Shown: positions 3,543-21,531 of the stretch, piece by piece | Layout: each line of letters starts with the position of its first letter | Position numbering within the stretch: position 1 is the first letter of the stretch | From: Escherichia coli | GTDB lineage: Bacteria; Pseudomonadota; Gammaproteobacteria; Enterobacterales; Enterobacteriaceae | Direction: 5' to 3' (one strand) | DNA: 64,000 bases | Assembly: GCF_003991155.1 (NCBI RefSeq) | Contig: NZ_CP031293.1 | Notes under the pieces: generated by a model | The model's input: the letters and a program-made list of their open reading frames with translations, nothing else | Database searches by the model: none | Told to the model about the DNA's origin: nothing | Program-made: the position numbers and the translations under genes

Positions 3543-4163
3543 TTAGAGGATTTCCAGCAGTTCGACTTCAAACACCAGGGTGCTGAACGGAGGGATGGAC
3601 GCGCCAGCGCCGCGCTCGCCATATGCCAGTTCCTGCGGGATAGTCAGTTCCCATTTAGAACCTACCGGCATCAGAGTCAGTGCTTCAATCCAGCCAGGGA
3701 TCACACCATTAACCGGGAATTCAGCTGGCTCGCCGCGAGCAACGGAGCTGTCAAACACGGTGCCGTCGATCAGTTTTCCGGTGTAATGAACACGAACGCG
3801 GTCGGTACGTGCCGGAATTGCGCCTTCGCCCTGGTTGATCACGCGGAATTGCAGGCCAGATTCGGTGCTATTTACACCTTCTTTTTTGGCGTTTTCTTCC
3901 AGGTATTTCACACCTTCAGCAGCCATCGCCTGGAAACGCTGACGACGAACGGCATCGGCGCGTTCGTGGATTTCACGCAGCGCGCGGTGCACCACATCAA
4001 CCGGAACAGCCGGATGTTTGCCTTCCAGCGCATCGGCAATGCCTGCAACCAGTGCTTCTGGCAGCAGCCCTTCCAGGCCAGATTCACTCAGTTGTTGCCC
4101 TACCTGCAAACCAATGCCGTAGCTTGCTTGCGCTTCGATGGTGTCAAAAGTTGGGGTGGTCAT
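3543..4163 (-). CDS. fklB: FKBP-type peptidyl-prolyl cis-trans isomerase FklB
   Basis: ORF track gives 259 aa; conserved protein starts at internal [20 protein letters not shown] (206 aa) with FKBP domain at the C-terminus; start chosen accordingly. Confidence 0.9.
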
Positions 4164-4380
4164 CGTATTTCCTTTCTTAGGGTATAAAGTAGCGGGCAGC
4201 ATATCAGCCACACTTCTTTGGGTAAAACTTTGTCGCGGGAATGATGACAAATCCCGGGGAAAAAGAAACAATAGCAATATCCCGTATGAATATAATAAAG
4301 GCGGGTTTACCACGGACATCATAGCGTTAGCTTATTCATAGGCTATGATTGAGGAACAAGACGCGGAGCAGGAGGAAACC

Positions 4381-5019
4381 ATGCCCGGGCGCTTTGAACT
4401 AAAACCAACCCTGGAGAAAGTCTGGCACGCGCCGGACAATTTTCGCTTCATGGACCCGCTGCCGCCGATGCATCGTCGGGGGATCATTATTGCCGCCATT
4501 GTATTGGTAGTCGGATTTCTGCTTCCATCTGATGATACGCCCAACGCGCCAGTGGTGACGCGTGAAGCGCAGTTAGATATTCAGTCGCAATCACAACCAC
4601 CGACAGAAGAACAGCTGCGGGCGCAATTAGTCACGCCACAAAATGATCCTGATCAGGTGGCTCCGGTCGCTCCAGAACCAATACAGGAAGGCCAGCCAGA
4701 AGAGCAGCCGCAAACCACCCATACGCAACCATTCCAGCCAGATAGCGGAATTGATAATCAATGGCGCTCCTATCGTGTCGAACCCGGTAAAACGATGGCG
4801 CAGCTGTTCCGCGACCACGGACTGCCCGCTACCGATGTCTATGCCATGGCGCAGGTAGAAGGCGCGGGTAAGCCGCTGAGTAATTTGCAAAACGGGCAGA
4901 TGGTGAAAATCCGCCAGAACGCCAGCGGCGTGGTGACGGGCTTAACCATTGATACGGGGAATAATCAACAGGTCCTGTTTACCCGCCAGCCGGATGGCAG
5001 TTTTATTCGTGCGCGGTAG
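4381..5019 (+). CDS. ytfB: Cell division protein YtfB (OapA/LysM-like C-terminal domain)
   Basis: ORF 4345..5019; start set at [23 protein letters not shown] to give 212 aa; Pro/Gln-rich linker then C-terminal OapA-like domain. Confidence 0.8.
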
Positions 5020-5650
5020 ATGAAGGGTCAACCAAAAGCCAGCTAAGGATTGTCTCTTTGATGACCTTACGTCTGGCTTCCAGTGCCTGGGGTGAAACCA
5101 TACTGATGTGATAAACCAGGCCAAGCGTATGCTGGTTGATCAAATAATATCCCCCAAGCGCAGCAATATTAATATTCACCTGCAATGGGTCGATATCTGG
5201 CTTAAAAATATTGTGTTTCTTCCCTTCATCCAATAAGGATTCCATTAACTGCAAGTGCGCATGGTTAATTTCTAAAAGACGCTGTGACTTTGCATAATGC
5301 ACACCCTTACTTTGATTTTCACTATGCACAATTTTTAAAAACCAGGGATTAGAAATATAATAATCCCATGTAAAATCGATTATTTTCTCAATGGCTTTCT
5401 GTGGCGGAAGATCTGAGAAATCAAGGGCCTTTTCTTTTTGTCGAATATCGTTCCAGGTATATTCCAGTACTTCGATAAATAAATTTTCTTTATTACCAAA
5501 GTGGTGATAAACCGTCTGTTTACTGCACCCTGCTGCCTTGACAATATTATCGACTCTGGCCCCTTCGTAACCATATTCGGCAAATTCATTAACCGCGCAT
5601 AACAGCAGCTTTTCTTTCAGGCTCTGTACGTTGCTGGTATCAAGATACAT
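5003..5650 (-). CDS. TetR/AcrR-family transcriptional regulator, divergent from the catabolic operon
   Basis: N-terminal HTH signature ([28 protein letters not shown]) typical of TetR; start set at [11 protein letters not shown] (215 aa); AT-rich coding sequence; 3' end overlaps ytfB by 17 bp (convergent). Possibly the intact counterpart of the K-12 ytfA fragment (from memory, unverified). Confidence 0.8.
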
Positions 5651-5862
5651 AACGCTTCCCCACGACCTCTTCGTGGTGACTATCATAACCTGATTTGATT
5701 TCAGCTTCAGAAAAAAGGGCAAAAACTTGTACTTTCATCAGGTTATCAAATGTCCTGTGATCGCCATCGCATATCAACCAACTAGATGGTTGATCTTTTT
5801 ATCATCCAGTCGCAAGCTAATCATCACCAAGGAAACAAAATTCAAAAAAAGAGAGCTATTGT

Positions 5863-6654
5863 ATGAAATCCACTCGTCCTGTTGCCGTGATTACCGGAGC
5901 CGCTCGTGGTATTGGAAAGGGCTGTGCGCTGGAGCTTGCGCGTGGCGGATTTAATCTGCTGATTAATGATCGTCCGGATGCGGATAGCGTAGAAAAATTA
6001 CATGCCACACAACAAGAATGTCTGGCGGAAGGCGTGGAAGTGATTTGCTTCCCTGCTGATGTGGGCGATCTCTCCCTTCATGAAGAGATGCTCGACGCGG
6101 CGCAAAACCAGTGGGGACGTCTGGACTGTCTACTCAACAACGCAGGCATTTCAGTGAAAAAACGCGGTGACCTCCTCGACCTCGAACCAGACAGCTTCGA
6201 TCAAAACATTGCCATTAACACCCGCGCGCCGTTCTTCCTTGCTCAGGCATTCAGTAAGCGCTTACTGGCACAGCCGAAACCGGAAGCAGAACTGCCGCAC
6301 CGCTCGATTATTTTTGTCAGTTCCATCAACGCCATCATGCTGGCGATGAATCGCGGCGAATATACCATTGCCAAAACTGCCGTCTCCGCCGCAGCTCGTC
6401 TGTTTGCCGCTCGCCTTTGCAATGAACAAATTGGCGTTTATGAAGTGCGCCCTGGTCTCATCAAAACTGATATGACTATTCCGGCAACGGCTTATTACGA
6501 CGAACTGATTGCCAAAGGTCTGGTGCCGTGGGGACGTTGGGGTTATCCGGCTGATATTGCTTCCACTGTCCGCGCGATGGCGGAAGGTAAACTGATTTAC
6601 ACCTGCGGTCAGGCGGTTGCCATCGACGGCGGCTTAAGTATGCCGCGCTTCTGA
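5863..6654 (+). CDS. Short-chain dehydrogenase/reductase (SDR) family oxidoreductase
   Basis: 263-aa ORF with N-terminal TGAARGIGKG Rossmann motif and SDR-like catalytic region; first gene of the operon. Confidence 0.85.
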   Translation: MKSTRPVAVITGAARGIGKGCALELARGGFNLLINDRPDADSVEKLHATQQECLAEGVEVICFPADVGDLSLHEEMLDAAQNQWGRLDCLLNNAGISVKKRGDLLDLEPDSFDQNIAINTRAPFFLAQAFSKRLLAQPKPEAELPHRSIIFVSSINAIMLAMNRGEYTIAKTAVSAAARLFAARLCNEQIGVYEVRPGLIKTDMTIPATAYYDELIAKGLVPWGRWGYPADIASTVRAMAEGKLIYTCGQAVAIDGGLSMPRF

Positions 6655-6663
6655 GGCTGAATC

Positions 6664-7506
6664 ATGAGAGATCTGTTACAACGCCCGGATTTATTCAGTA
6701 TCAATACCGCAACACTGGGCTATAAAACGCCGCTACCCGCCATTATTGATGCCTGCGCCGCACGCGGTATTGGCGCAATTGCCCCCTGGCGCAGGGAGTT
6801 GCAGGGTGAAGATCTCCAGCAAATCGCCCGCCAGCTTGCTGCCAGTAACATAAACGTTTCCGGTTTGTGCCGTAGCACCTACTACACCGCACCGACGCTG
6901 GCGGAGCGCAAACTGGCGATTGACGATAACCGCCGGGCGCTGGACGACGCCGCTGTACTGAACGCTGCCTGTTATATGCAGGTGGTTGGCGGTCTGCCAA
7001 TGGGAACAAAAGATCTGTACGAAGCGCGGGAACAGGTGAAACAAGGGATTCGCCAGTTGCTGCCACATTCGAAAGATGTCGGTGTGCCAATTGCACTGGA
7101 GCCACTGCACCCGATGACTGCTGCCGATCGTTCTTGTCTGTGCACGTTACGTCAGGCGCTGGACTGGTGTGATGAACTCGATCCCGATGGCGAATTTGGC
7201 CTCGGCGTGGCGGTAGATGTCTACCATGTCTGGTGGGATCCGGATCTCGCCAGTCAGATCCTGCGTGCCGGAAAACGCATCCTCGCGTTTCATGTTTCCG
7301 ACTGGTTAGTGCCGACCACCGATCTGGTCAATGACCGTGGAATGCCGGGAGATGGTGTCATCAATATTCCGTCAATTCGTCGGCTGGTTGAAAACGCCGG
7401 ATTTAATGGCGCTATTGAACTGGAAATATTCTCACCGTATTGGTGGCAGCAAGATATTGACAGCACACTGGATATTAGCGTCGATCGCATCGCGCATTAT
7501 TGCTAA
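6664..7506 (+). CDS. Sugar-phosphate isomerase/epimerase-like TIM-barrel protein (xylose isomerase-like fold)
   Basis: 280-aa ORF; resembles the AP-endonuclease-2/xylose-isomerase-like TIM-barrel family (hydroxypyruvate isomerase, dehydroshikimate dehydratase, IolE-like). Family call from memory. Confidence 0.7.
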   Translation: MRDLLQRPDLFSINTATLGYKTPLPAIIDACAARGIGAIAPWRRELQGEDLQQIARQLAASNINVSGLCRSTYYTAPTLAERKLAIDDNRRALDDAAVLNAACYMQVVGGLPMGTKDLYEAREQVKQGIRQLLPHSKDVGVPIALEPLHPMTAADRSCLCTLRQALDWCDELDPDGEFGLGVAVDVYHVWWDPDLASQILRAGKRILAFHVSDWLVPTTDLVNDRGMPGDGVINIPSIRRLVENAGFNGAIELEIFSPYWWQQDIDSTLDISVDRIAHYC

Positions 7507-7515
7507 GGAATAATC

Positions 7516-8292
7516 ATGAGTGACCAACCCGTTCTGTTCAGCAGAGCGGCGGCTTCTTGCCGCCTGACATTGAACCGTGAAGATAAATGTCATGCTATTA
7601 ATGAAGAAATGATCGAATCTCTCGACCATTATTTAAATGAAATTGAAAATGACACGGCATTACGCTTAGTCGAATTAACGGCAACCGGCGATAAATTCTT
7701 TTGTGCGGGCGGCGATATTAAATCGTGGTCGGCCTATTCGCCATTAGATATGGGCAGAAAATGGATTAAACGCGGTAACGAGGTTTTTAATCGCCTGCGC
7801 AATTTACCCCAATTAACGGTTGCAAATCTCAACGGTCATACCATTGGCGGTGGGATTGAACTCGCCTTGTGCTGCGATATTCGTATTGCCCGCCCCGGCG
7901 CGAAATTCTCTAACCCGGAAGTGATGCTCGGCATGGTGCCTGGCTGGATGGGCATTGAACGCGTGCTTAATCAGGTTGGCCCGGTGGTCGGTCGCCAGAT
8001 GCTGATGCTGGGTAAACGCCTGACGGCGCAGGAAGCTCAGGCGGCGAATTTAATTGATGAAGTGGTAGAAAAAGAACAGGTGGAAAGCTGGATGGCGAAT
8101 CAGTTAGCGCAGCTGGAAAAATGCGGTCCGGTGGCGCTCGCACATATCAAGCAACTGATTCTGGCACTGGAAAATAAACATGCTGATTACCCGCACCAGT
8201 TACTGGCTGGATTAATGTCCGCCACTCAGGATTGCCAGCAGGCGACGCGCGCCTTTGCCGAAAAAAGTAGCGTGAGCTTCCAAAATCAATAA
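7516..8292 (+). CDS. Enoyl-CoA hydratase/isomerase (crotonase) family protein
   Basis: 258-aa ORF with crotonase-fold hallmarks (FCAGGDIK, GHTIGGGIELALCCDIRIA oxyanion-hole region). Confidence 0.85.
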   Translation: MSDQPVLFSRAAASCRLTLNREDKCHAINEEMIESLDHYLNEIENDTALRLVELTATGDKFFCAGGDIKSWSAYSPLDMGRKWIKRGNEVFNRLRNLPQLTVANLNGHTIGGGIELALCCDIRIARPGAKFSNPEVMLGMVPGWMGIERVLNQVGPVVGRQMLMLGKRLTAQEAQAANLIDEVVEKEQVESWMANQLAQLEKCGPVALAHIKQLILALENKHADYPHQLLAGLMSATQDCQQATRAFAEKSSVSFQNQ

Positions 8293-8301
8293 GGAAATTG
8301 T

Positions 8302-9843
8302 ATGCGTAAGATAACAACCACCGAGACACTGGCGGCGCAAATTCAGGACGGCGCAACCATTGCCATTAGCGGTAATGGCGGCGGAATGGTGGAAGCGGAC
8401 CATATTCTGGCTGCTATTGAAGCGCGTTTCCTGCAAACCGGACACCCGCGCGATCTGACATTAATCCACTCGCTGGGCATTGGCGATCGCGACTGCAAAG
8501 GCACTAACCGCTTCGCTCATGCAGATATGCTCAAACGCATCATTGCCGGGCACTTTACCTGGTCGCCCAAAATGCAGGCGCTGGTAAAAAATAACACGAT
8601 TGAAGCCTACTGCTTTCCTGGTGGCGTGATTCAGGCACTGCTACGGGAGATCGGCGCCGGACGTCCGGGGCTTTTTACCCACGTTGGGCTGGGATCGTTT
8701 GTTGATCCACGCAATGGCGGCGGTAAGTCGAATGAATGCACGACCGACGACCTGGTAGAACTGATTGAAATCGATGGTGAAACCAAACTTCGTTATCGCC
8801 CTTTCAAAGTGGATTACGCGATTTTGCGTGGCACTTATGCCGATCCACGAGGCAACGTCAGCCTCGAAGAAGAGGCGATTGATATGGATAGCTATTCGAT
8901 GGCGCTGGCAGCACACAACAGCGGCGGCAAAGTGTTCGTACAGGTACGCGATGTGCTGGAAGCTGGCGCGATTGAACCACGCCGGGTCAAATTACCGGGC
9001 ATTCTGGTTGATGGCATCGTTGAACACCGCGAACAACCGCAAACCTATCTTGGCGGTTACGACCTGACCATTAGCGGTCAACATCGCCGTCTGAGTTCTA
9101 ACGACGCTATTGAACTGGTTAGTCATCCAGTACGCCGCCTGATTGCCCGTCGGGCAGCACGCGAACTGGTGGCTGGCGCTTCAACCAACTTTGGCTTTGG
9201 TATTCCTGGCGGTATTCCAGGCGTAGCGCTGCGCGAAGGCGTTCCTTACCAAAGTTTATGGCTGAGCGTCGAGCAAGGTGTACATAACGGCATGATGCTG
9301 GATGATGCGTTCTTCGGCTGCGCCCGCAACGCCGACGCCATTATTCCATCACTCGATCAATTTGAGTTCTACAGTGGCGGAGGGATCGATATCACCTTCC
9401 TCGGCATGGGAGAGATGGATCAGTACGGTAACGTCAACGTCTCCCATCTCAATGGCAATCTGATTGGCCCCGGCGGATTTCTCGAAATTGCGCAAAACGC
9501 CCGTAAAGTGGTGTTCTGCGGCACGTTCGACGCCAAAGGTAGCAAGATCGATGTAACGCCAGATGGCTTGCATATCGCCCAGTCAGGTCAAATCCCTAAA
9601 CTGGTTACCCAGGTGGAAAAAATCACTTTTAGCGCCGCCTACGCACAGCAAAGCGGTCAGGAAGTGTTGTATATCACTGAACGTGCAGTATTCCAGTTAA
9701 CGGCAGAAGGCGTTGAATTAATTGAAATCGCACCGGGTGTGGAGATTGAGCGCGACATTCTGCCGTATATGGCTTTCCGTCCAATTATCAAGCACCCACG
9801 CCTGATGGAAAGTAGCCTGTTTACGCCGATGGAGGATGCATGA
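8302..9843 (+). CDS. Family-I CoA-transferase (acyl-CoA:acetate/3-ketoacid CoA-transferase, YdiF/Pct-like, fused subunits)
   Basis: 513-aa ORF; shares conserved blocks with E. coli YdiF and propionate CoA-transferase (FVDPR, YITERAVF, LIEIAPGV) as recalled from memory. Confidence 0.8.
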   Translation: MRKITTTETLAAQIQDGATIAISGNGGGMVEADHILAAIEARFLQTGHPRDLTLIHSLGIGDRDCKGTNRFAHADMLKRIIAGHFTWSPKMQALVKNNTIEAYCFPGGVIQALLREIGAGRPGLFTHVGLGSFVDPRNGGGKSNECTTDDLVELIEIDGETKLRYRPFKVDYAILRGTYADPRGNVSLEEEAIDMDSYSMALAAHNSGGKVFVQVRDVLEAGAIEPRRVKLPGILVDGIVEHREQPQTYLGGYDLTISGQHRRLSSNDAIELVSHPVRRLIARRAARELVAGASTNFGFGIPGGIPGVALREGVPYQSLWLSVEQGVHNGMMLDDAFFGCARNADAIIPSLDQFEFYSGGGIDITFLGMGEMDQYGNVNVSHLNGNLIGPGGFLEIAQNARKVVFCGTFDAKGSKIDVTPDGLHIAQSGQIPKLVTQVEKITFSAAYAQQSGQEVLYITERAVFQLTAEGVELIEIAPGVEIERDILPYMAFRPIIKHPRLMESSLFTPMEDA

Positions 9844-11921
9844 GCCAGCTTGATGACACCCTCCTTGATGCGCTGACACACGTCACTTTCCCAAAGGGTT
9901 TTGTGTCAGCAGAGCCAGCGTCAATTGTCACGGTTGAAGATGTCGATTACCCGATCTGGCAAGTTGATGCGCTAGTCGTTGGTAGCGGCGCAGCAGGATT
10001 ACGTGCGGCAGTTGAACTTAAACGCCGCCAGCAAAATGTGCTGATCGCCACCGCCGGGTTATATATGGGGACATCGGCATGTTCTGGCTCTGATAAACAG
10101 ACGCTGTTTACCGCCGCTACCGCGGGCAACGGCGATAACTTCGCCAAACTGGCGGAAGCACTGGCGAGCGGTGGGGCGATGGATCATGACACCGCTTATG
10201 TCGAAGCGGTAGGTTCTCTGCACACTCTTGGCGGGTTGCAATATCTTGGTCTGGAATTACCGGAAGATCGCTATGGCGCGATTCTTCGTTATCAAACCGA
10301 CCATGACGAAGCCGGGCGTGCAACCTCGTGTGGGCCGCGTACCTCAAGGTTAATGGTGAAAGTGCTGTTGGAAGAAGTACAGCGCCTCGCCATTCCAGTG
10401 TTGACCAGTGCAACAGTGATTAAACTGCTGCATCAGCGTGACGAAAACGGCGAAGACCGTGTGGCGGGGGCAATCCTCGCGACCGGTCATCGCGCCCTTA
10501 ACCCATGGGGGCTGGCAATTGTGACTGCGCCCAATGTGGTACTGGCAACAGGAGGGCCTGGCGAGCTTTATCGCGACAGTGTGTACCCACACAAATGTTT
10601 TGGCTCGCTGGGGCTGGCGCTGGAGGAAGGCCTGACACTAACTAATCTGACCGAAAGCCAGTTTGGTATAGGCACGCCGCGCAGCACGTTTCCGTGGAAT
10701 TTGTCCGGCACCTATGTGCAGGTGATCCCATATATCTATTCCGTGGATGCTGAGGGTAACGAGTATAACTTCCTCGCGGATTACTATCGCACCACCCAGG
10801 AGCTGGCTTCAAACATCTTCCGTAAAGGCTATCAGTGGCCGTTCCACGCCACGCGGGTAATGGATTTTGGCTCCAGCTTGTTAGATATGGCGGTGGCGCA
10901 AGAGCAGCAATCAGGGCGTCAGGTATTTATGGATTTCAATCGTAATCCTGTAGCGGTGCCTGGTGATTTGCCCTTCTCATTAGATCGACTGGACGACGAC
11001 GTTCGCGCGTATCTGGAAAATAACGACGCTCTGGCACCATCGCCCATCGAACGACTGCAACGAATGAATCCGCTGTCTATCTCGCTGTATAAGATGCACG
11101 GTTACGATCTCACCACGCAGCCATTGCAGTTTGCCATGAATAATCAGCACATGAATGGCGGCATTGAAGTCGATATCTGGGGACAAACATCTCTGCCCGG
11201 TTGTTTTGCAGTGGGGGAAGTTGCTGGCACACACGGCGTCACCCGACCTGGCGGCGCGGCGTTGAATGCCGGGCAGGTTTTTGCTGTTCGTCTGGCGCGC
11301 TTTATTGGTTGCACGCAAAAGCGGAATATTGATGGAGATATTGCACAGCTGGCAGCTCCGGCACTGGCTTCTATAAGAGAGATCATTACTCAGGCGCACG
11401 ATAACGGGACCGGGATGCCGTTGTCGATTGTGAGAGAAAAAATTCAGGCACGAATGTCTGACTATGCGGGATTTATTTGCCATGCCGATAAAGTTCGACG
11501 TGCCACTCGTGATGCCCTGCTATTGAGTGAATTTGTCCAACAGCATGGATTGGCAATCAAACATGTGGGCGAAGTTGCCGAGCTGTTTATGTGGCGGCAT
11601 ATGGCACTGACTTCTGCCGCCGTATTAACGCAATTGACGCATTATATTGACGCAGGTGGTGGTAGCCGGGGAGCACGTATTATTCTCGACAGTGATGGAA
11701 ATTCTATTCCGCAAACACGAAATGGTTTTTGTGATGCCTGGCGCTTTCGTTCAGAGCGTACTGAGGATAAAAAAGATAAACTACTTATTCATTATTGCAA
11801 CGGTATCTTTCACGTCAGAGAAACACCTGTTCGTGAGTTTCCTATTATCCGAGGTATTTGGTTTGAAAAAAACTGGCCTGGTTTTCTTAATGGGACAATT
11901 TACCAGCCACAGGATGAATGA
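9840..11921 (+). CDS. FAD-dependent oxidoreductase (fumarate reductase/succinate dehydrogenase flavoprotein-like superfamily), 693 aa
   Basis: Dinucleotide-binding motif VVGSGAAGLRAA near the N-terminus and a second glycine-rich FAD motif (AVGEVAGTHGVTRPGGAALNAG); ATGA overlap with upstream and downstream genes; the last ~90 codons are encoded by AT-rich DNA. Confidence 0.75.
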   Translation: MSQLDDTLLDALTHVTFPKGFVSAEPASIVTVEDVDYPIWQVDALVVGSGAAGLRAAVELKRRQQNVLIATAGLYMGTSACSGSDKQTLFTAATAGNGDNFAKLAEALASGGAMDHDTAYVEAVGSLHTLGGLQYLGLELPEDRYGAILRYQTDHDEAGRATSCGPRTSRLMVKVLLEEVQRLAIPVLTSATVIKLLHQRDENGEDRVAGAILATGHRALNPWGLAIVTAPNVVLATGGPGELYRDSVYPHKCFGSLGLALEEGLTLTNLTESQFGIGTPRSTFPWNLSGTYVQVIPYIYSVDAEGNEYNFLADYYRTTQELASNIFRKGYQWPFHATRVMDFGSSLLDMAVAQEQQSGRQVFMDFNRNPVAVPGDLPFSLDRLDDDVRAYLENNDALAPSPIERLQRMNPLSISLYKMHGYDLTTQPLQFAMNNQHMNGGIEVDIWGQTSLPGCFAVGEVAGTHGVTRPGGAALNAGQVFAVRLARFIGCTQKRNIDGDIAQLAAPALASIREIITQAHDNGTGMPLSIVREKIQARMSDYAGFICHADKVRRATRDALLLSEFVQQHGLAIKHVGEVAELFMWRHMALTSAAVLTQLTHYIDAGGGSRGARIILDSDGNSIPQTRNGFCDAWRFRSERTEDKKDKLLIHYCNGIFHVRETPVREFPIIRGIWFEKNWPGFLNGTIYQPQDE

Positions 11922-12418
11922 TATTGCAAAGGTTAATCACTATGCGAAATATAATTAGATCTATTAATGCTCTACTTGCAGCATTGAACATTACCATTTT
12001 GGCGATCATCGTGGCATGTGTGACGTGGCAGGTGGCTGCACGATTTATATTTACTAGTCCCAGTATTTTTACAGATGAACTCAGCCGTTTGCTCTTTATT
12101 TGTCTTGGACTTTTTGGTGGGGCATACACCGCAGGGCAAAACCGGCATCTGGCGATTGACCTGATACCTATGATGCTGAAAGGAAAAGCCCGACGTCATT
12201 TATTTTTGTGTATTCAGATTATCGTTATTATCTTCGCTACCATCATTATGGTATATGGTGGTGGGCTATTAACGATGGATACATTCGATTCAGGTCAGAC
12301 CTCGCCCGCTTTAGGCTGGCAAATGGGATATATCTATATGAGCATCCCGATGAGTGGTGTACTTATTATTATATACACCATAGATATGGTTTTAACCGAA
12401 CTTAAACAACCACTCTAA
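11918..12418 (+). CDS. TRAP transporter small permease subunit (DctQ-like)
   Basis: 166-aa hydrophobic ORF with about 4 predicted TM segments directly upstream of a DctM-like gene; an alternative start at the internal MRNIIRS is possible. Confidence 0.75.
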   Translation: MILQRLITMRNIIRSINALLAALNITILAIIVACVTWQVAARFIFTSPSIFTDELSRLLFICLGLFGGAYTAGQNRHLAIDLIPMMLKGKARRHLFLCIQIIVIIFATIIMVYGGGLLTMDTFDSGQTSPALGWQMGYIYMSIPMSGVLIIIYTIDMVLTELKQPL

Positions 12419-12460
12419 AGATAACAAACAACAACCAACCATAGTAGGAATGGAGAAATT

Positions 12461-13762
12461 ATGGATTACTGGTTACCGATTATTGTGTTATTTGGTGCCT
12501 TCTTTTTTATGTTGGCATTAGGTGTACCTATTGTTTATGCCATTGGTTTATCGACACTGGCATCAATTTCCACACAACTCGATTTCAACTCAGCATTGAG
12601 TGTGGTTTCCCAAAAGTTAGCCTCCGGGTTAGATAGTTTTACGTTGTTGGCAATCCCATTTTTTATCTTGTCTGGCAACATTATGAATCATGGAGGAATA
12701 GCGCGACGATTAATCAACTTTGCCCGTATTCTCGGCGGTCGTCTGCCAGGCTCACTTGCCCACTGTAATATTCTCGCCAATATGCTGTTCGGGGCAATTT
12801 CTGGTTCAGCCGTGGCTTCGGCGGCTGCGATGGGCGGCGTCATGCATCCGCAACAGGTTAAAGAGGGCTACGACCCGGCATTCAGTACTGCGGTTAACGT
12901 TGCCTCTGCCCCGACGGGTTTGCTTATTCCACCAAGTAATACGTTAATCGTCTATTCACTGGTCAGTGGTGGTACTTCTATTGCCGCACTGTTTCTGGCG
13001 GGTTATGTTCCGGGAATTTTGCTGGGTCTGGCACTGATGGTAATAGCCGGTATTATCGCGGTACGTCGCGGTTATCCAAAGCCAGAACGCCCGACTTTAC
13101 GCCAGGCTGGCGTTGCGATATGGATGGCTATCCCCAGTATTTTCCTGATTATTTTAATTATGGGGGGTGTATTAAGTGGTATTTTTACCCCGACAGAGGC
13201 CTCCGCAATTGCAGTAATTTATACCCTTTTCCTTGCACTGGTTCTTTATCGTGAAATCTCAGTTAAAGATTTACCTAAAATATTTCTGGAATCCGTTATT
13301 ACCACTGCAATTGTCTTGTTATTAATTGGTTCTTCGATGGGAATGTCATGGGCGATGTCAAACGCTGACGTTCCCTTCCTGATTCTCGATTTGCTTAACA
13401 CTATTTCTGACAACCCAATAATAATCCTGCTTATTATCAATATTATCCTGTTGATTATCGGCACTTTTATGGATATGACACCGGCGGTACTGATTTTTAC
13501 GCCGATATTTTTACCGGTTGTCACCGAACTGGGCATGGACCCGATTCACTTTGGTATTGTCATGGTACTGAACATGTGTATCGGTATTTGTACTCCGCCT
13601 GTAGGCAGTGTGTTATTTGTCGGTTGTAGTGTATCTAAATTACCGATTAATAAAATTATCAAACCTATGCTGCCATTTTATGCCGTGATGGTATTGGTGC
13701 TGGCAATGGTGACCTATATTCCGCAAATCAGTATGGCATTGCCAAGAGCACTGGGTTACTGA
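12461..13762 (+). CDS. TRAP transporter large permease subunit (DctM-like)
   Basis: 433-aa polytopic membrane protein with DctM-family features; AT-rich. Confidence 0.88.
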   Translation: MDYWLPIIVLFGAFFFMLALGVPIVYAIGLSTLASISTQLDFNSALSVVSQKLASGLDSFTLLAIPFFILSGNIMNHGGIARRLINFARILGGRLPGSLAHCNILANMLFGAISGSAVASAAAMGGVMHPQQVKEGYDPAFSTAVNVASAPTGLLIPPSNTLIVYSLVSGGTSIAALFLAGYVPGILLGLALMVIAGIIAVRRGYPKPERPTLRQAGVAIWMAIPSIFLIILIMGGVLSGIFTPTEASAIAVIYTLFLALVLYREISVKDLPKIFLESVITTAIVLLLIGSSMGMSWAMSNADVPFLILDLLNTISDNPIIILLIINIILLIIGTFMDMTPAVLIFTPIFLPVVTELGMDPIHFGIVMVLNMCIGICTPPVGSVLFVGCSVSKLPINKIIKPMLPFYAVMVLVLAMVTYIPQISMALPRALGY

Positions 13763-13814
13763 TGCGCATTCACTGGCGGCACCTGCCGCCATATTTATTA
13801 GAAAAGGAACATCT

Positions 13815-14786
13815 ATGAAAATAAAAGTATCCGCTGGCATTATCGGTGCTGTTCTTATGTTATCCGCAAGCCAGTCCTGGGCAGTGACATTAAAACTGAG
13901 TCATAATCAGGATAAGTCTCATCCTGTTCATAAAGCGATGGAGTTCTTTGCGAAAAAGAGCAAAGAGTACTCTAACGGTGATATTACTATTCGTATTTAT
14001 CCAAATGGAACATTGGGTACTCAACGAGAAACAATGGAGCTGATTCGTTCTGGCGCTATTCCACTGGTAAAAACCAACGCGGCAGAAATGGAAGCATTTG
14101 AAAATTCCTATAAATTATTTAGCCTGCCTTATTTGTTCCGCGATCGTGATCATTATTATCAGGTCATGCAGGGCGATATCGGGAGAAAAATCCTCGACTC
14201 AACGAAAAGCAAAGGTTATTTCGGGCTGACTTTTTATGATGGAGGCGCCCGCAGTTTCTACGGCAATAAACCAGTACTGAAACCAGACGATCTCAAAGGC
14301 ATGAAAGTCCGTGTCCAGCCAAGTCCTGGCGCAGTTGAAATGATCAAAGTCATGGGCGGTAACCCGACGCCACTGGATTACGGCGAGTTGTATACAGCCT
14401 TACAGCAGGGTGTGGTCGATATGGCAGAAAACAGCGTGATGGCGCTGACCACCATGCGTCACGGTGAAGTGGCAAAATCCTTCAGCCTTGACGAACACAC
14501 TATGGTTCCCGATGTGGTTCTGATGAGCAATGCTGCGTTTGATAAACTTAGCCCGGAAAATCAGGCAGTTATATTAAAAGCAGCTAAAGAATCAATGAGC
14601 TACATGAAAGACTTGTGGAGCGAGGAAGAGAAACAAGAATTTGCAAAACTGGATAAAATGGGCGTGAAAGTCTACCAGGTAGATAAAGCTCCGTTTATCG
14701 AGAAAGTACAGCCAATGTACGCAAACTTCGCTAAGGACAACCCAGCCCTTGCCCCAATGCTGGCTGATATTCAGGCAGCTAAGTAA
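13815..14786 (+). CDS. TRAP transporter periplasmic solute-binding protein (DctP/YiaO-like)
   Basis: 323-aa ORF with signal peptide (MKIKVSAGIIGAVLMLSASQSWA) and DctP-family sequence; last gene of the operon. Confidence 0.85.
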   Translation: MKIKVSAGIIGAVLMLSASQSWAVTLKLSHNQDKSHPVHKAMEFFAKKSKEYSNGDITIRIYPNGTLGTQRETMELIRSGAIPLVKTNAAEMEAFENSYKLFSLPYLFRDRDHYYQVMQGDIGRKILDSTKSKGYFGLTFYDGGARSFYGNKPVLKPDDLKGMKVRVQPSPGAVEMIKVMGGNPTPLDYGELYTALQQGVVDMAENSVMALTTMRHGEVAKSFSLDEHTMVPDVVLMSNAAFDKLSPENQAVILKAAKESMSYMKDLWSEEEKQEFAKLDKMGVKVYQVDKAPFIEKVQPMYANFAKDNPALAPMLADIQAAK

Positions 14787-14842
14787 TTATCTTCGTAGGG
14801 CTGCTTATTGTGGCCCTTATCGATATCTGCAAGTGCTCGCTA

Positions 14843-14877
14843 CAAAAGCAAAACGCCGACCAATGGTCGGCGTTTTT
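14843..14877. terminator. Bidirectional rho-independent terminator between the TRAP operon (+) and rplI (-)
   Basis: GC hairpin cgccgacc-aat-ggtcggcg flanked by an A-run upstream and a T-run downstream, read directly from the sequence. Confidence 0.6.

Positions 14878-20076: not shown

Positions 20077-21531
<1,455 letters not shown>

Follow-up and report, generated by a model that had tools for sequence, protein, structure and literature searches.

An intact TetR-family regulator between ytfB and rplI

The window analysed here, a stretch of 64,000 nucleotides of Escherichia coli DNA (NCBI RefSeq assembly GCF_003991155.1, contig NZ_CP031293.1), carries between ytfB and rplI a complete TetR/AcrR-family regulator gene, ytfA, together with an eight-gene operon that runs divergently from it across a 212-bp intergenic region (Table 1). 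The first-pass annotation had placed a TetR gene at the 3' end of ytfB, and the open reading frame, its Pfam domains and the RefSeq annotation of an identical genome all bear this out. Positions 4300-6000 of the window are 100% identical to E. coli strain 2016C-3878, in which RefSeq annotates ytfB at 20082-20720 and the TetR gene at 20704-21351 (L002), so that both the gene pair and its overlap match the window. The ytfA start codon is an ATG at 5650, opening a translation that begins MYLDTS, with a Shine-Dalgarno-like GGGGAAG motif upstream of it (ORF listing).

Both parts expected of a TetR-family protein were detected. The N-terminal helix-turn-helix was matched by TetR_N (PF00440) over residues 19-61 with 53.6 bits (Pfam cut-off 24), and the C-terminal ligand-binding and dimerisation domain by TetR_C_29 (PF17938) over residues 83-201, a full-length match (1-119 of 119) with 104.7 bits (cut-off 26.2). 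Solved structures related to the protein are TetR regulators, the best being 3npi (E = 1.3e-16), which is itself an uncharacterised structural-genomics protein, and NCBIfam gave a weak similarity to the acyl-CoA-sensing FadR of Bacillus, with every equivalog score far under the cut-off. Close orthologues were limited to Escherichia, Klebsiella spallanzanii and Entomohabitans, always between ytfB and rplI; the next-best matches beyond these came from Alphaproteobacteria at 38-40% identity. When the alphaproteobacterial homologues were checked for the same operon, Albidovulum (L015) alone had TIM-barrel, SDR and CoA-transferase homologues nearby, and no useful functional transfer resulted.

Table 1. 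Positions of genes and sequence features at the ytfB-rplI locus of the window
Feature	Position	Strand	Basis or remark
ytfB, cell division protein, OapA/LysM-like	4381..5019	+	Pfam LysM_OapA and OapA_N; RefSeq annotation
17-bp convergent overlap of the ytfA and ytfB 3' ends	5003..5019		ORF listing; RefSeq annotation
Full-length ytfA, TetR/AcrR-family regulator, 215 aa	5003..5650	-	ORF, Pfam, RefSeq WP_001317585.1 in identical genome
Part of ytfA kept in K-12, codons 83-215	5003..5405	-	Ungapped 403-bp match, 9 mismatches, 8 at third codon positions
Left copy of 8-bp direct repeat GTGGCGGA, in ytfA; left end of proposed 541-bp K-12 deletion	5401..5408		Junction comparison
Helix-turn-helix DNA-binding domain, residues 19-61	5468..5596	-	PF00440; wholly missing from K-12, whose homology stops at 5405
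ytfA/operon divergent intergenic region	5651..5862		Deleted in K-12
22-bp palindrome ATCAACCAACT/AGATGGTTGAT, candidate YtfA operator	5773..5794		Inverted repeat, 10/11 complementary positions
First operon gene: SDR, annotated 3-ketoacyl-ACP reductase	5863..6654	+	Pfam and NCBIfam PRK12745
Right copy of GTGGCGGA, within the SDR/reductase gene; right end of proposed 541-bp deletion	5942..5949		Junction comparison
SDR stretch, codons ~30-64, decayed in K-12	5952..6053	+	79% identity to K-12 (L001 7111-7212)
TCCCTG microhomology in SDR gene; left end of proposed second (~7.3-kb) deletion	6050..6055		Junctions compared: K-12, E1V33, CE10
Operon genes 2-5: xylose-isomerase-like TIM barrel, enoyl-CoA hydratase, CoA-transferase (513 aa), FAD oxidoreductase (693 aa)	6664..11921	+	Pfam, NCBIfam, RefSeq annotation
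TRAP transporter small permease, large permease, binding protein	11942..14786	+	Annotation; other strains have an MFS transporter instead
K-12 homology resumption point, just downstream of rplI 3' end	14845		Comparison with K-12

The K-12 pseudogene ytfA as a remnant of the regulator

In K-12, ytfA (b4205) is annotated as a pseudogene of 402 bp between ytfB and yjfZ, with the same 17-bp overlap with ytfB, and its PGAP label reads 'TetR/AcrR family transcriptional regulator, incomplete, missing N-terminus'. It had been proposed from the sequence alone that the window regulator sits at the position of this gene and that the K-12 gene might be its remnant. The position matches b4205 exactly, and pairwise alignment gave 132 identities over the 133 residues (83-215) of the window protein that K-12 YtfA covers. 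Over the retained part, the two genes are 97.8% identical in nucleotides and 99% in amino acids without a gap, and both lie between ytfB and rplI, as orthologues should. Two findings that would contradict such descent, a dissimilar K-12 protein or a full-length copy elsewhere in K-12, were not encountered: K-12 contains one partial copy only, at a single place (query 1-1106), which is the copy annotated as a pseudogene. The older 108-aa YtfA ORF of K-12 begins at an internal GTG. While it shares locus, strand and overlap with the window gene, K-12 ytfA lacks codons 1-82 with the helix-turn-helix, the start codon, the promoter/operator region and the entire divergent operon, whereas the window gene is complete. 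On these alignments, the window gene is shown to be the intact form of the K-12 pseudogene.

That ytfA is a pseudogene in K-12, and that its presence varies between strains, is already known from genome annotation and published work. Colclough et al. (2019, BMC Genomics; PMC6790063) placed ytfA among the TetR-family regulators that are present in some E. coli and absent in others, and reported it in every E. albertii and E. fergusonii strain that they looked at; the variable presence in E. coli agrees with the 58% counted here (see below). The passages of that paper that treat ytfA do not describe deletion scars, the regulated operon or the overlap.

Deletion history of the K-12 locus

Homology of K-12 to the window is ungapped up to 5405 and is back at 14845, and between these break points K-12 has 1,082 bp foreign to the window, comprising 4 nt, a 102-bp SDR remnant, a 127-bp spacer and yjfZ. 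The SDR remnant contains two in-frame stops and approximately 12 amino-acid changes, and is 79-85% identical to any functional allele. The pair of GTGGCGGA repeats, 541 bp apart, was found in the window, CE10 and E69 alleles. In CE10, TCCCTG occurs again ~100 bp beyond the MFS gene, 7,333 bp from the first copy; the locus of this strain consists of an intact ytfA, five enzyme genes, an MFS transporter replacing the TRAP genes, the same spacer and yjfZ. In K-12, the spacer and yjfZ match the sequence that follows the MFS gene in CE10 at 97.6% identity.

These junctions are best read as those of an MFS-type operon variant that would have become the K-12 haplotype through two microhomology-mediated deletions. 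The first would have taken out the 541 bp between the GTGGCGGA repeats, a segment that holds TetR codons 1-82, the operator region and the first 29 codons of the SDR gene; the second, between the TCCCTG repeats, would have cost the locus ~7.3 kb that start at about SDR codon 65 and end 100 bp beyond the MFS gene. The parent locus is taken as MFS-type rather than TRAP-type because an SDR remnant lies between the scars and is then followed by yjfZ. Escherichia sp. E1V33 has the same two scars as K-12 along with a common AAA>TAA stop in the SDR remnant, and the scars are therefore either old or exchanged between species; despite both scars, E1V33 is without the clean 844-bp block that contains yjfZ. 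As in other bacterial pseudogenes made by deletion between short direct repeats, both K-12 junctions fall at repeats (8 bp and 6-7 bp) that intact alleles also have. Bases at the K-12 junctions have mutated since deletion, and the sequence fits replication slippage and illegitimate recombination alike. An origin of the ~20% divergence of the SDR remnant in an allele of the ISHS7 type (see below) was considered and rejected, the remnant being about equally far from all functional alleles and carrying stops and many amino-acid changes.

The first-pass annotation had supposed that K-12 lost the operon by deletion and that the scar lies next to a cell-division gene. Loss by deletion stands, with fragments of two operon-side genes kept in K-12, but neither one deletion nor a TRAP-type parent fits two microhomology scars and a yjfZ that is in K-12 and not in the window; as for the scar, it falls within the TetR gene, with 386 bp between it and the ytfB stop codon, and so not directly beside ytfB. 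A loss of the window's TRAP-type operon in one step beside ytfB would account for the single interruption in homology between 5405 and 14845, which does resemble one event. We nonetheless regard it as very improbable, given that the intervening K-12 sequence includes an SDR remnant, yjfZ and a spacer that otherwise occurs only in CE10-type strains, after the MFS gene, that K-12 has no trace of TRAP genes, and that a separate microhomology marks each junction. The reverse polarity, in which the short K-12 state would be ancestral and the TetR gene and operon an island inserted in the lineage of the window strain, draws on the confinement of orthologues to Escherichia, K. spallanzanii and Entomohabitans, since the next-best matches in Alphaproteobacteria suggest an old horizontal origin. 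An insertion of this kind has hardly any chance of being correct: K-12 keeps TetR codons 83-215 and SDR codons ~30-64, fragments of a kind left by loss only, and the operon occupies the same ytfB-rplI locus in three genera.

Overlap with ytfB

The convergent overlap of 17 bp with ytfB, which had also been noticed at first reading, is exact: the interval common to both genes has the same extent in the RefSeq annotation of 2016C-3878, and the ytfB stop codon is the TAG at 5017-5019. The overlap is kept in the main alleles of E. coli, in E. whittamii, E. albertii, Escherichia sp. E1V33 and K. spallanzanii, and is replaced by a 0-bp gap in the divergent E. coli ISHS7 allele and by a 15-bp gap in Entomohabitans. 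Past the conserved SWLLV motif, the TetR tail is variable in length, with 2-8 residues, and the overlap ranges from +17 to -15 bp; the TetR codons concerned are not part of the Pfam domain. In antisense, the Phe-Ile codons of ytfB supply the TetR stop codon, whose position therefore depends on which synonymous codons ytfB uses. Because it is absent in some alleles and confined to the variable C-terminal tail, the overlap looks incidental, a variable tail that would run on to a stop codon in the antisense of ytfB.

A terminator scan predicted no intrinsic terminator at the junction on either strand, RNA folds around the overlap were no better than those of shuffled sequence (z about -1.1), and an Rfam scan of 4000-6200 at E<=1 gave no match. 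As the junction has no intrinsic terminator, unusual RNA fold or Rfam family, read-through across it in both directions is plausible. For K-12, a published genomic SELEX table places an RpoD promoter, directed toward ytfA, between yjfZ and ytfA (PMC3946193), and antisense transcription into ytfB is therefore conceivable even there. As a long shot, convergent transcription without a terminator could tie induction of the regulator to the level of the cell-division protein YtfB.

State of the truncated fragment

Truncated ytfA in E. coli has the pattern of a decaying pseudogene. Its helix-turn-helix and start codon are gone, and no in-frame start codon was found upstream of codon 83 in any of the nine truncated E. 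coli alleles examined. Private changes in these nine alleles (those unseen in intact alleles) comprise 11 nonsynonymous or nonsense changes and 4 synonymous ones, with a stop at Q123 among them. When matches were sampled at even spacing, 16 records were truncated, and in 12 of them an IS200/IS605-family element interrupts the fragment at window position 5110/5111; the strains that bear it include O157:H7, O145:H28 and O111, and K-12 is without it. The element is annotated as IS609-like, with tnpA and TnpB (L004 6855-8496, L087 1-205).

Translation of the K-12 fragment from a start codon upstream of the scar was also considered, and was excluded in the nine truncated E. coli alleles, such a start being present only in Escherichia sp. 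E1V33. In that strain, the antisense of the SDR remnant reads in frame into the TetR C-terminal domain, and the two form one fused ORF of 166 aa that opens with ATG (L013 9899-10399). A junction difference of 1 nt breaks this fused frame in all truncated E. coli alleles examined.

When the fragment is compared with intact alleles and with that of E1V33, nearly all differences are synonymous, with a dN/dS of 0.03-0.11 even within 40 bp of the scar (0.11 for K-12 versus E1V33). Only 4 nt away, the SDR remnant has a divergence of 1-16% among truncated E. coli alleles, versus 0-3.7% for the fragment. Over nine truncated strains, the remnant was 4-5 times more divergent than the adjacent ytfA fragment (L001 7107-7212 versus 6812-7105). 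With so little decay in the fragment beside a decayed SDR remnant, a model of old deletion followed by neutral decay needs gene conversion or recurrent deletion as an extra assumption. We prefer short-patch gene conversion by the intact alleles present in most of the population as the source of this freshness; the SDR remnant, diverged and bounded by junctions, would be unable to receive such conversion. Alternatively, deletion may have happened more than once at one and the same repeat, or a truncated product may once have been under selection (compare the E1V33 ORF).

Two readings that assign a function to what remains at this junction were weighed against decay and chance. The 17-bp overlap might have been selected for a regulatory role, with ytfA and ytfB expression coupled through transcriptional interference or antisense pairing, as its retention in four Escherichia species and K. 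spallanzanii despite differing tail sequences would suggest, together with the lack of a predicted terminator on both strands of the junction. This is unlikely, because the overlap has given way to gaps both in Entomohabitans and in the divergent allele of ~400 E. coli genomes, the TetR codons involved are variable and outside the Pfam domain with a stop position that hangs on the choice of synonymous Phe-Ile codons in ytfB, and the local RNA yields neither unusual folds nor Rfam matches. Somewhat less probable still is that the K-12 fragment itself remains functional and is preserved for that reason, as a protein made of the ligand-binding domain only or as an RNA antisense to the 3' end of ytfB. 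The open frame in K-12, the synonymous nature of 8 of its 9 differences from the intact allele, the dN/dS between K-12 and E1V33, the ATG-initiated ORF that crosses the scar in E1V33 and the listed RpoD promoter, which is constitutive, would all fit a retained function; the missing upstream start, the nonsense mutation, the insertion element in most truncated strains and the neutral-like 11:4 ratio of private changes do not. A broader view would make the ytfB-rplI locus an ancient presence/absence polymorphism for a CoA-dependent catabolic operon across Escherichia, in which the fragment is kept fresh by gene conversion or selection while the 102-bp SDR remnant decays freely; we hold this to be a long shot, about as doubtful as a selected overlap.

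Proposed regulation of the divergent operon

When the intergenic regions of nine loci, drawn from three genera and including those of K. spallanzanii and Entomohabitans, are aligned, the 22-bp palindrome stands out as the best-conserved block. From this conservation and from the behaviour of the family, YtfA most likely represses the divergent eight-gene operon, which it would do by binding the palindrome as its candidate operator; a metabolite of the pathway, on binding the C-terminal domain, would then release YtfA from the DNA. Local TetR-family repressors that are divergent from their target operon, such as AcrR, RutR and Bacillus FadR, offer a close parallel, in that YtfA likewise has an N-terminal helix-turn-helix and a helical ligand-binding domain, and its locus likewise has a divergent intergenic region with a conserved palindrome. 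It differs from these in that its operator is a candidate, its regulon is predicted, and its equivalog scores are far under the cut-off. No publication on the operon came up in literature searches by gene name and by RefSeq protein accession.

Among solved structures, those most closely related to the TRAP binding protein (window 13815-14786) include 4n15, 4n91 and 4mhf (E = 1e-59 to 1e-67), which were used or described as D-glucuronate/galacturonate-binding proteins in a paper on Salmonella STM3169 (PMC7660916). This relationship hints at a hexuronate-like substrate for the TRAP-type operon, although the operon's enzymes are CoA-dependent.

Taken as a whole, the explanation that combines an intact ytfA repressor, a K-12 history of two deletions and an incidental overlap with ytfB has, in our estimate, a probability of about 80%.

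Variants of the locus across E. coli

Variants were counted over 5,426 complete E. coli genomes. The segment missing from K-12 (5420-5940) was present in 3,142 of these (58%), TRAP-type transporter genes in 1,447 and the MFS-type transporter gene in ~1,674. The two transporter versions (window 11903-14845 and L007 12521-14980) part close to the 3' end of the FAD oxidoreductase gene, where the swap point lies, and the version of the operon with a single MFS transporter was also found in E. whittamii, K. spallanzanii and Entomohabitans. Approximately 400 E. coli genomes carry a ytfB-ytfA allele that is ~19% divergent. In ISHS7 (L006 12075-13700), the divergence extends over ytfB, ytfA and the first part of the SDR gene; the flanks on either side are otherwise typical of E. 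coli, with fklB and the TRAP binding protein identical at the protein level. Sequence comparison thus suggests either introgression or an ancient polymorphism at the locus.

The yjfZ gene (DUF2686) forms a clean 844-bp presence/absence block without flanking repeats (K-12, L001 7340-8183), for which a search for flanking target-site duplications found none, and the gene is frameshifted in some strains (L004, L089). A 2024 paper put yjfZ forward as an E. coli-specific marker gene (PMC11057252), although at least 80% of the K-12 yjfZ-region query was covered in only 2,499 of the 5,426 genomes.

The locus confirms that K-12 represents the degenerate state, which in itself is of small practical value, and it offers a clean example of what would be microhomology-mediated gene loss. 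Both yjfZ and the operon variants (TRAP, MFS and truncated) segregate within E. coli, and a complete regulator with an eight-gene CoA-dependent operon, carried by more than half of sequenced E. coli, lies beyond the reach of K-12-based knowledge.
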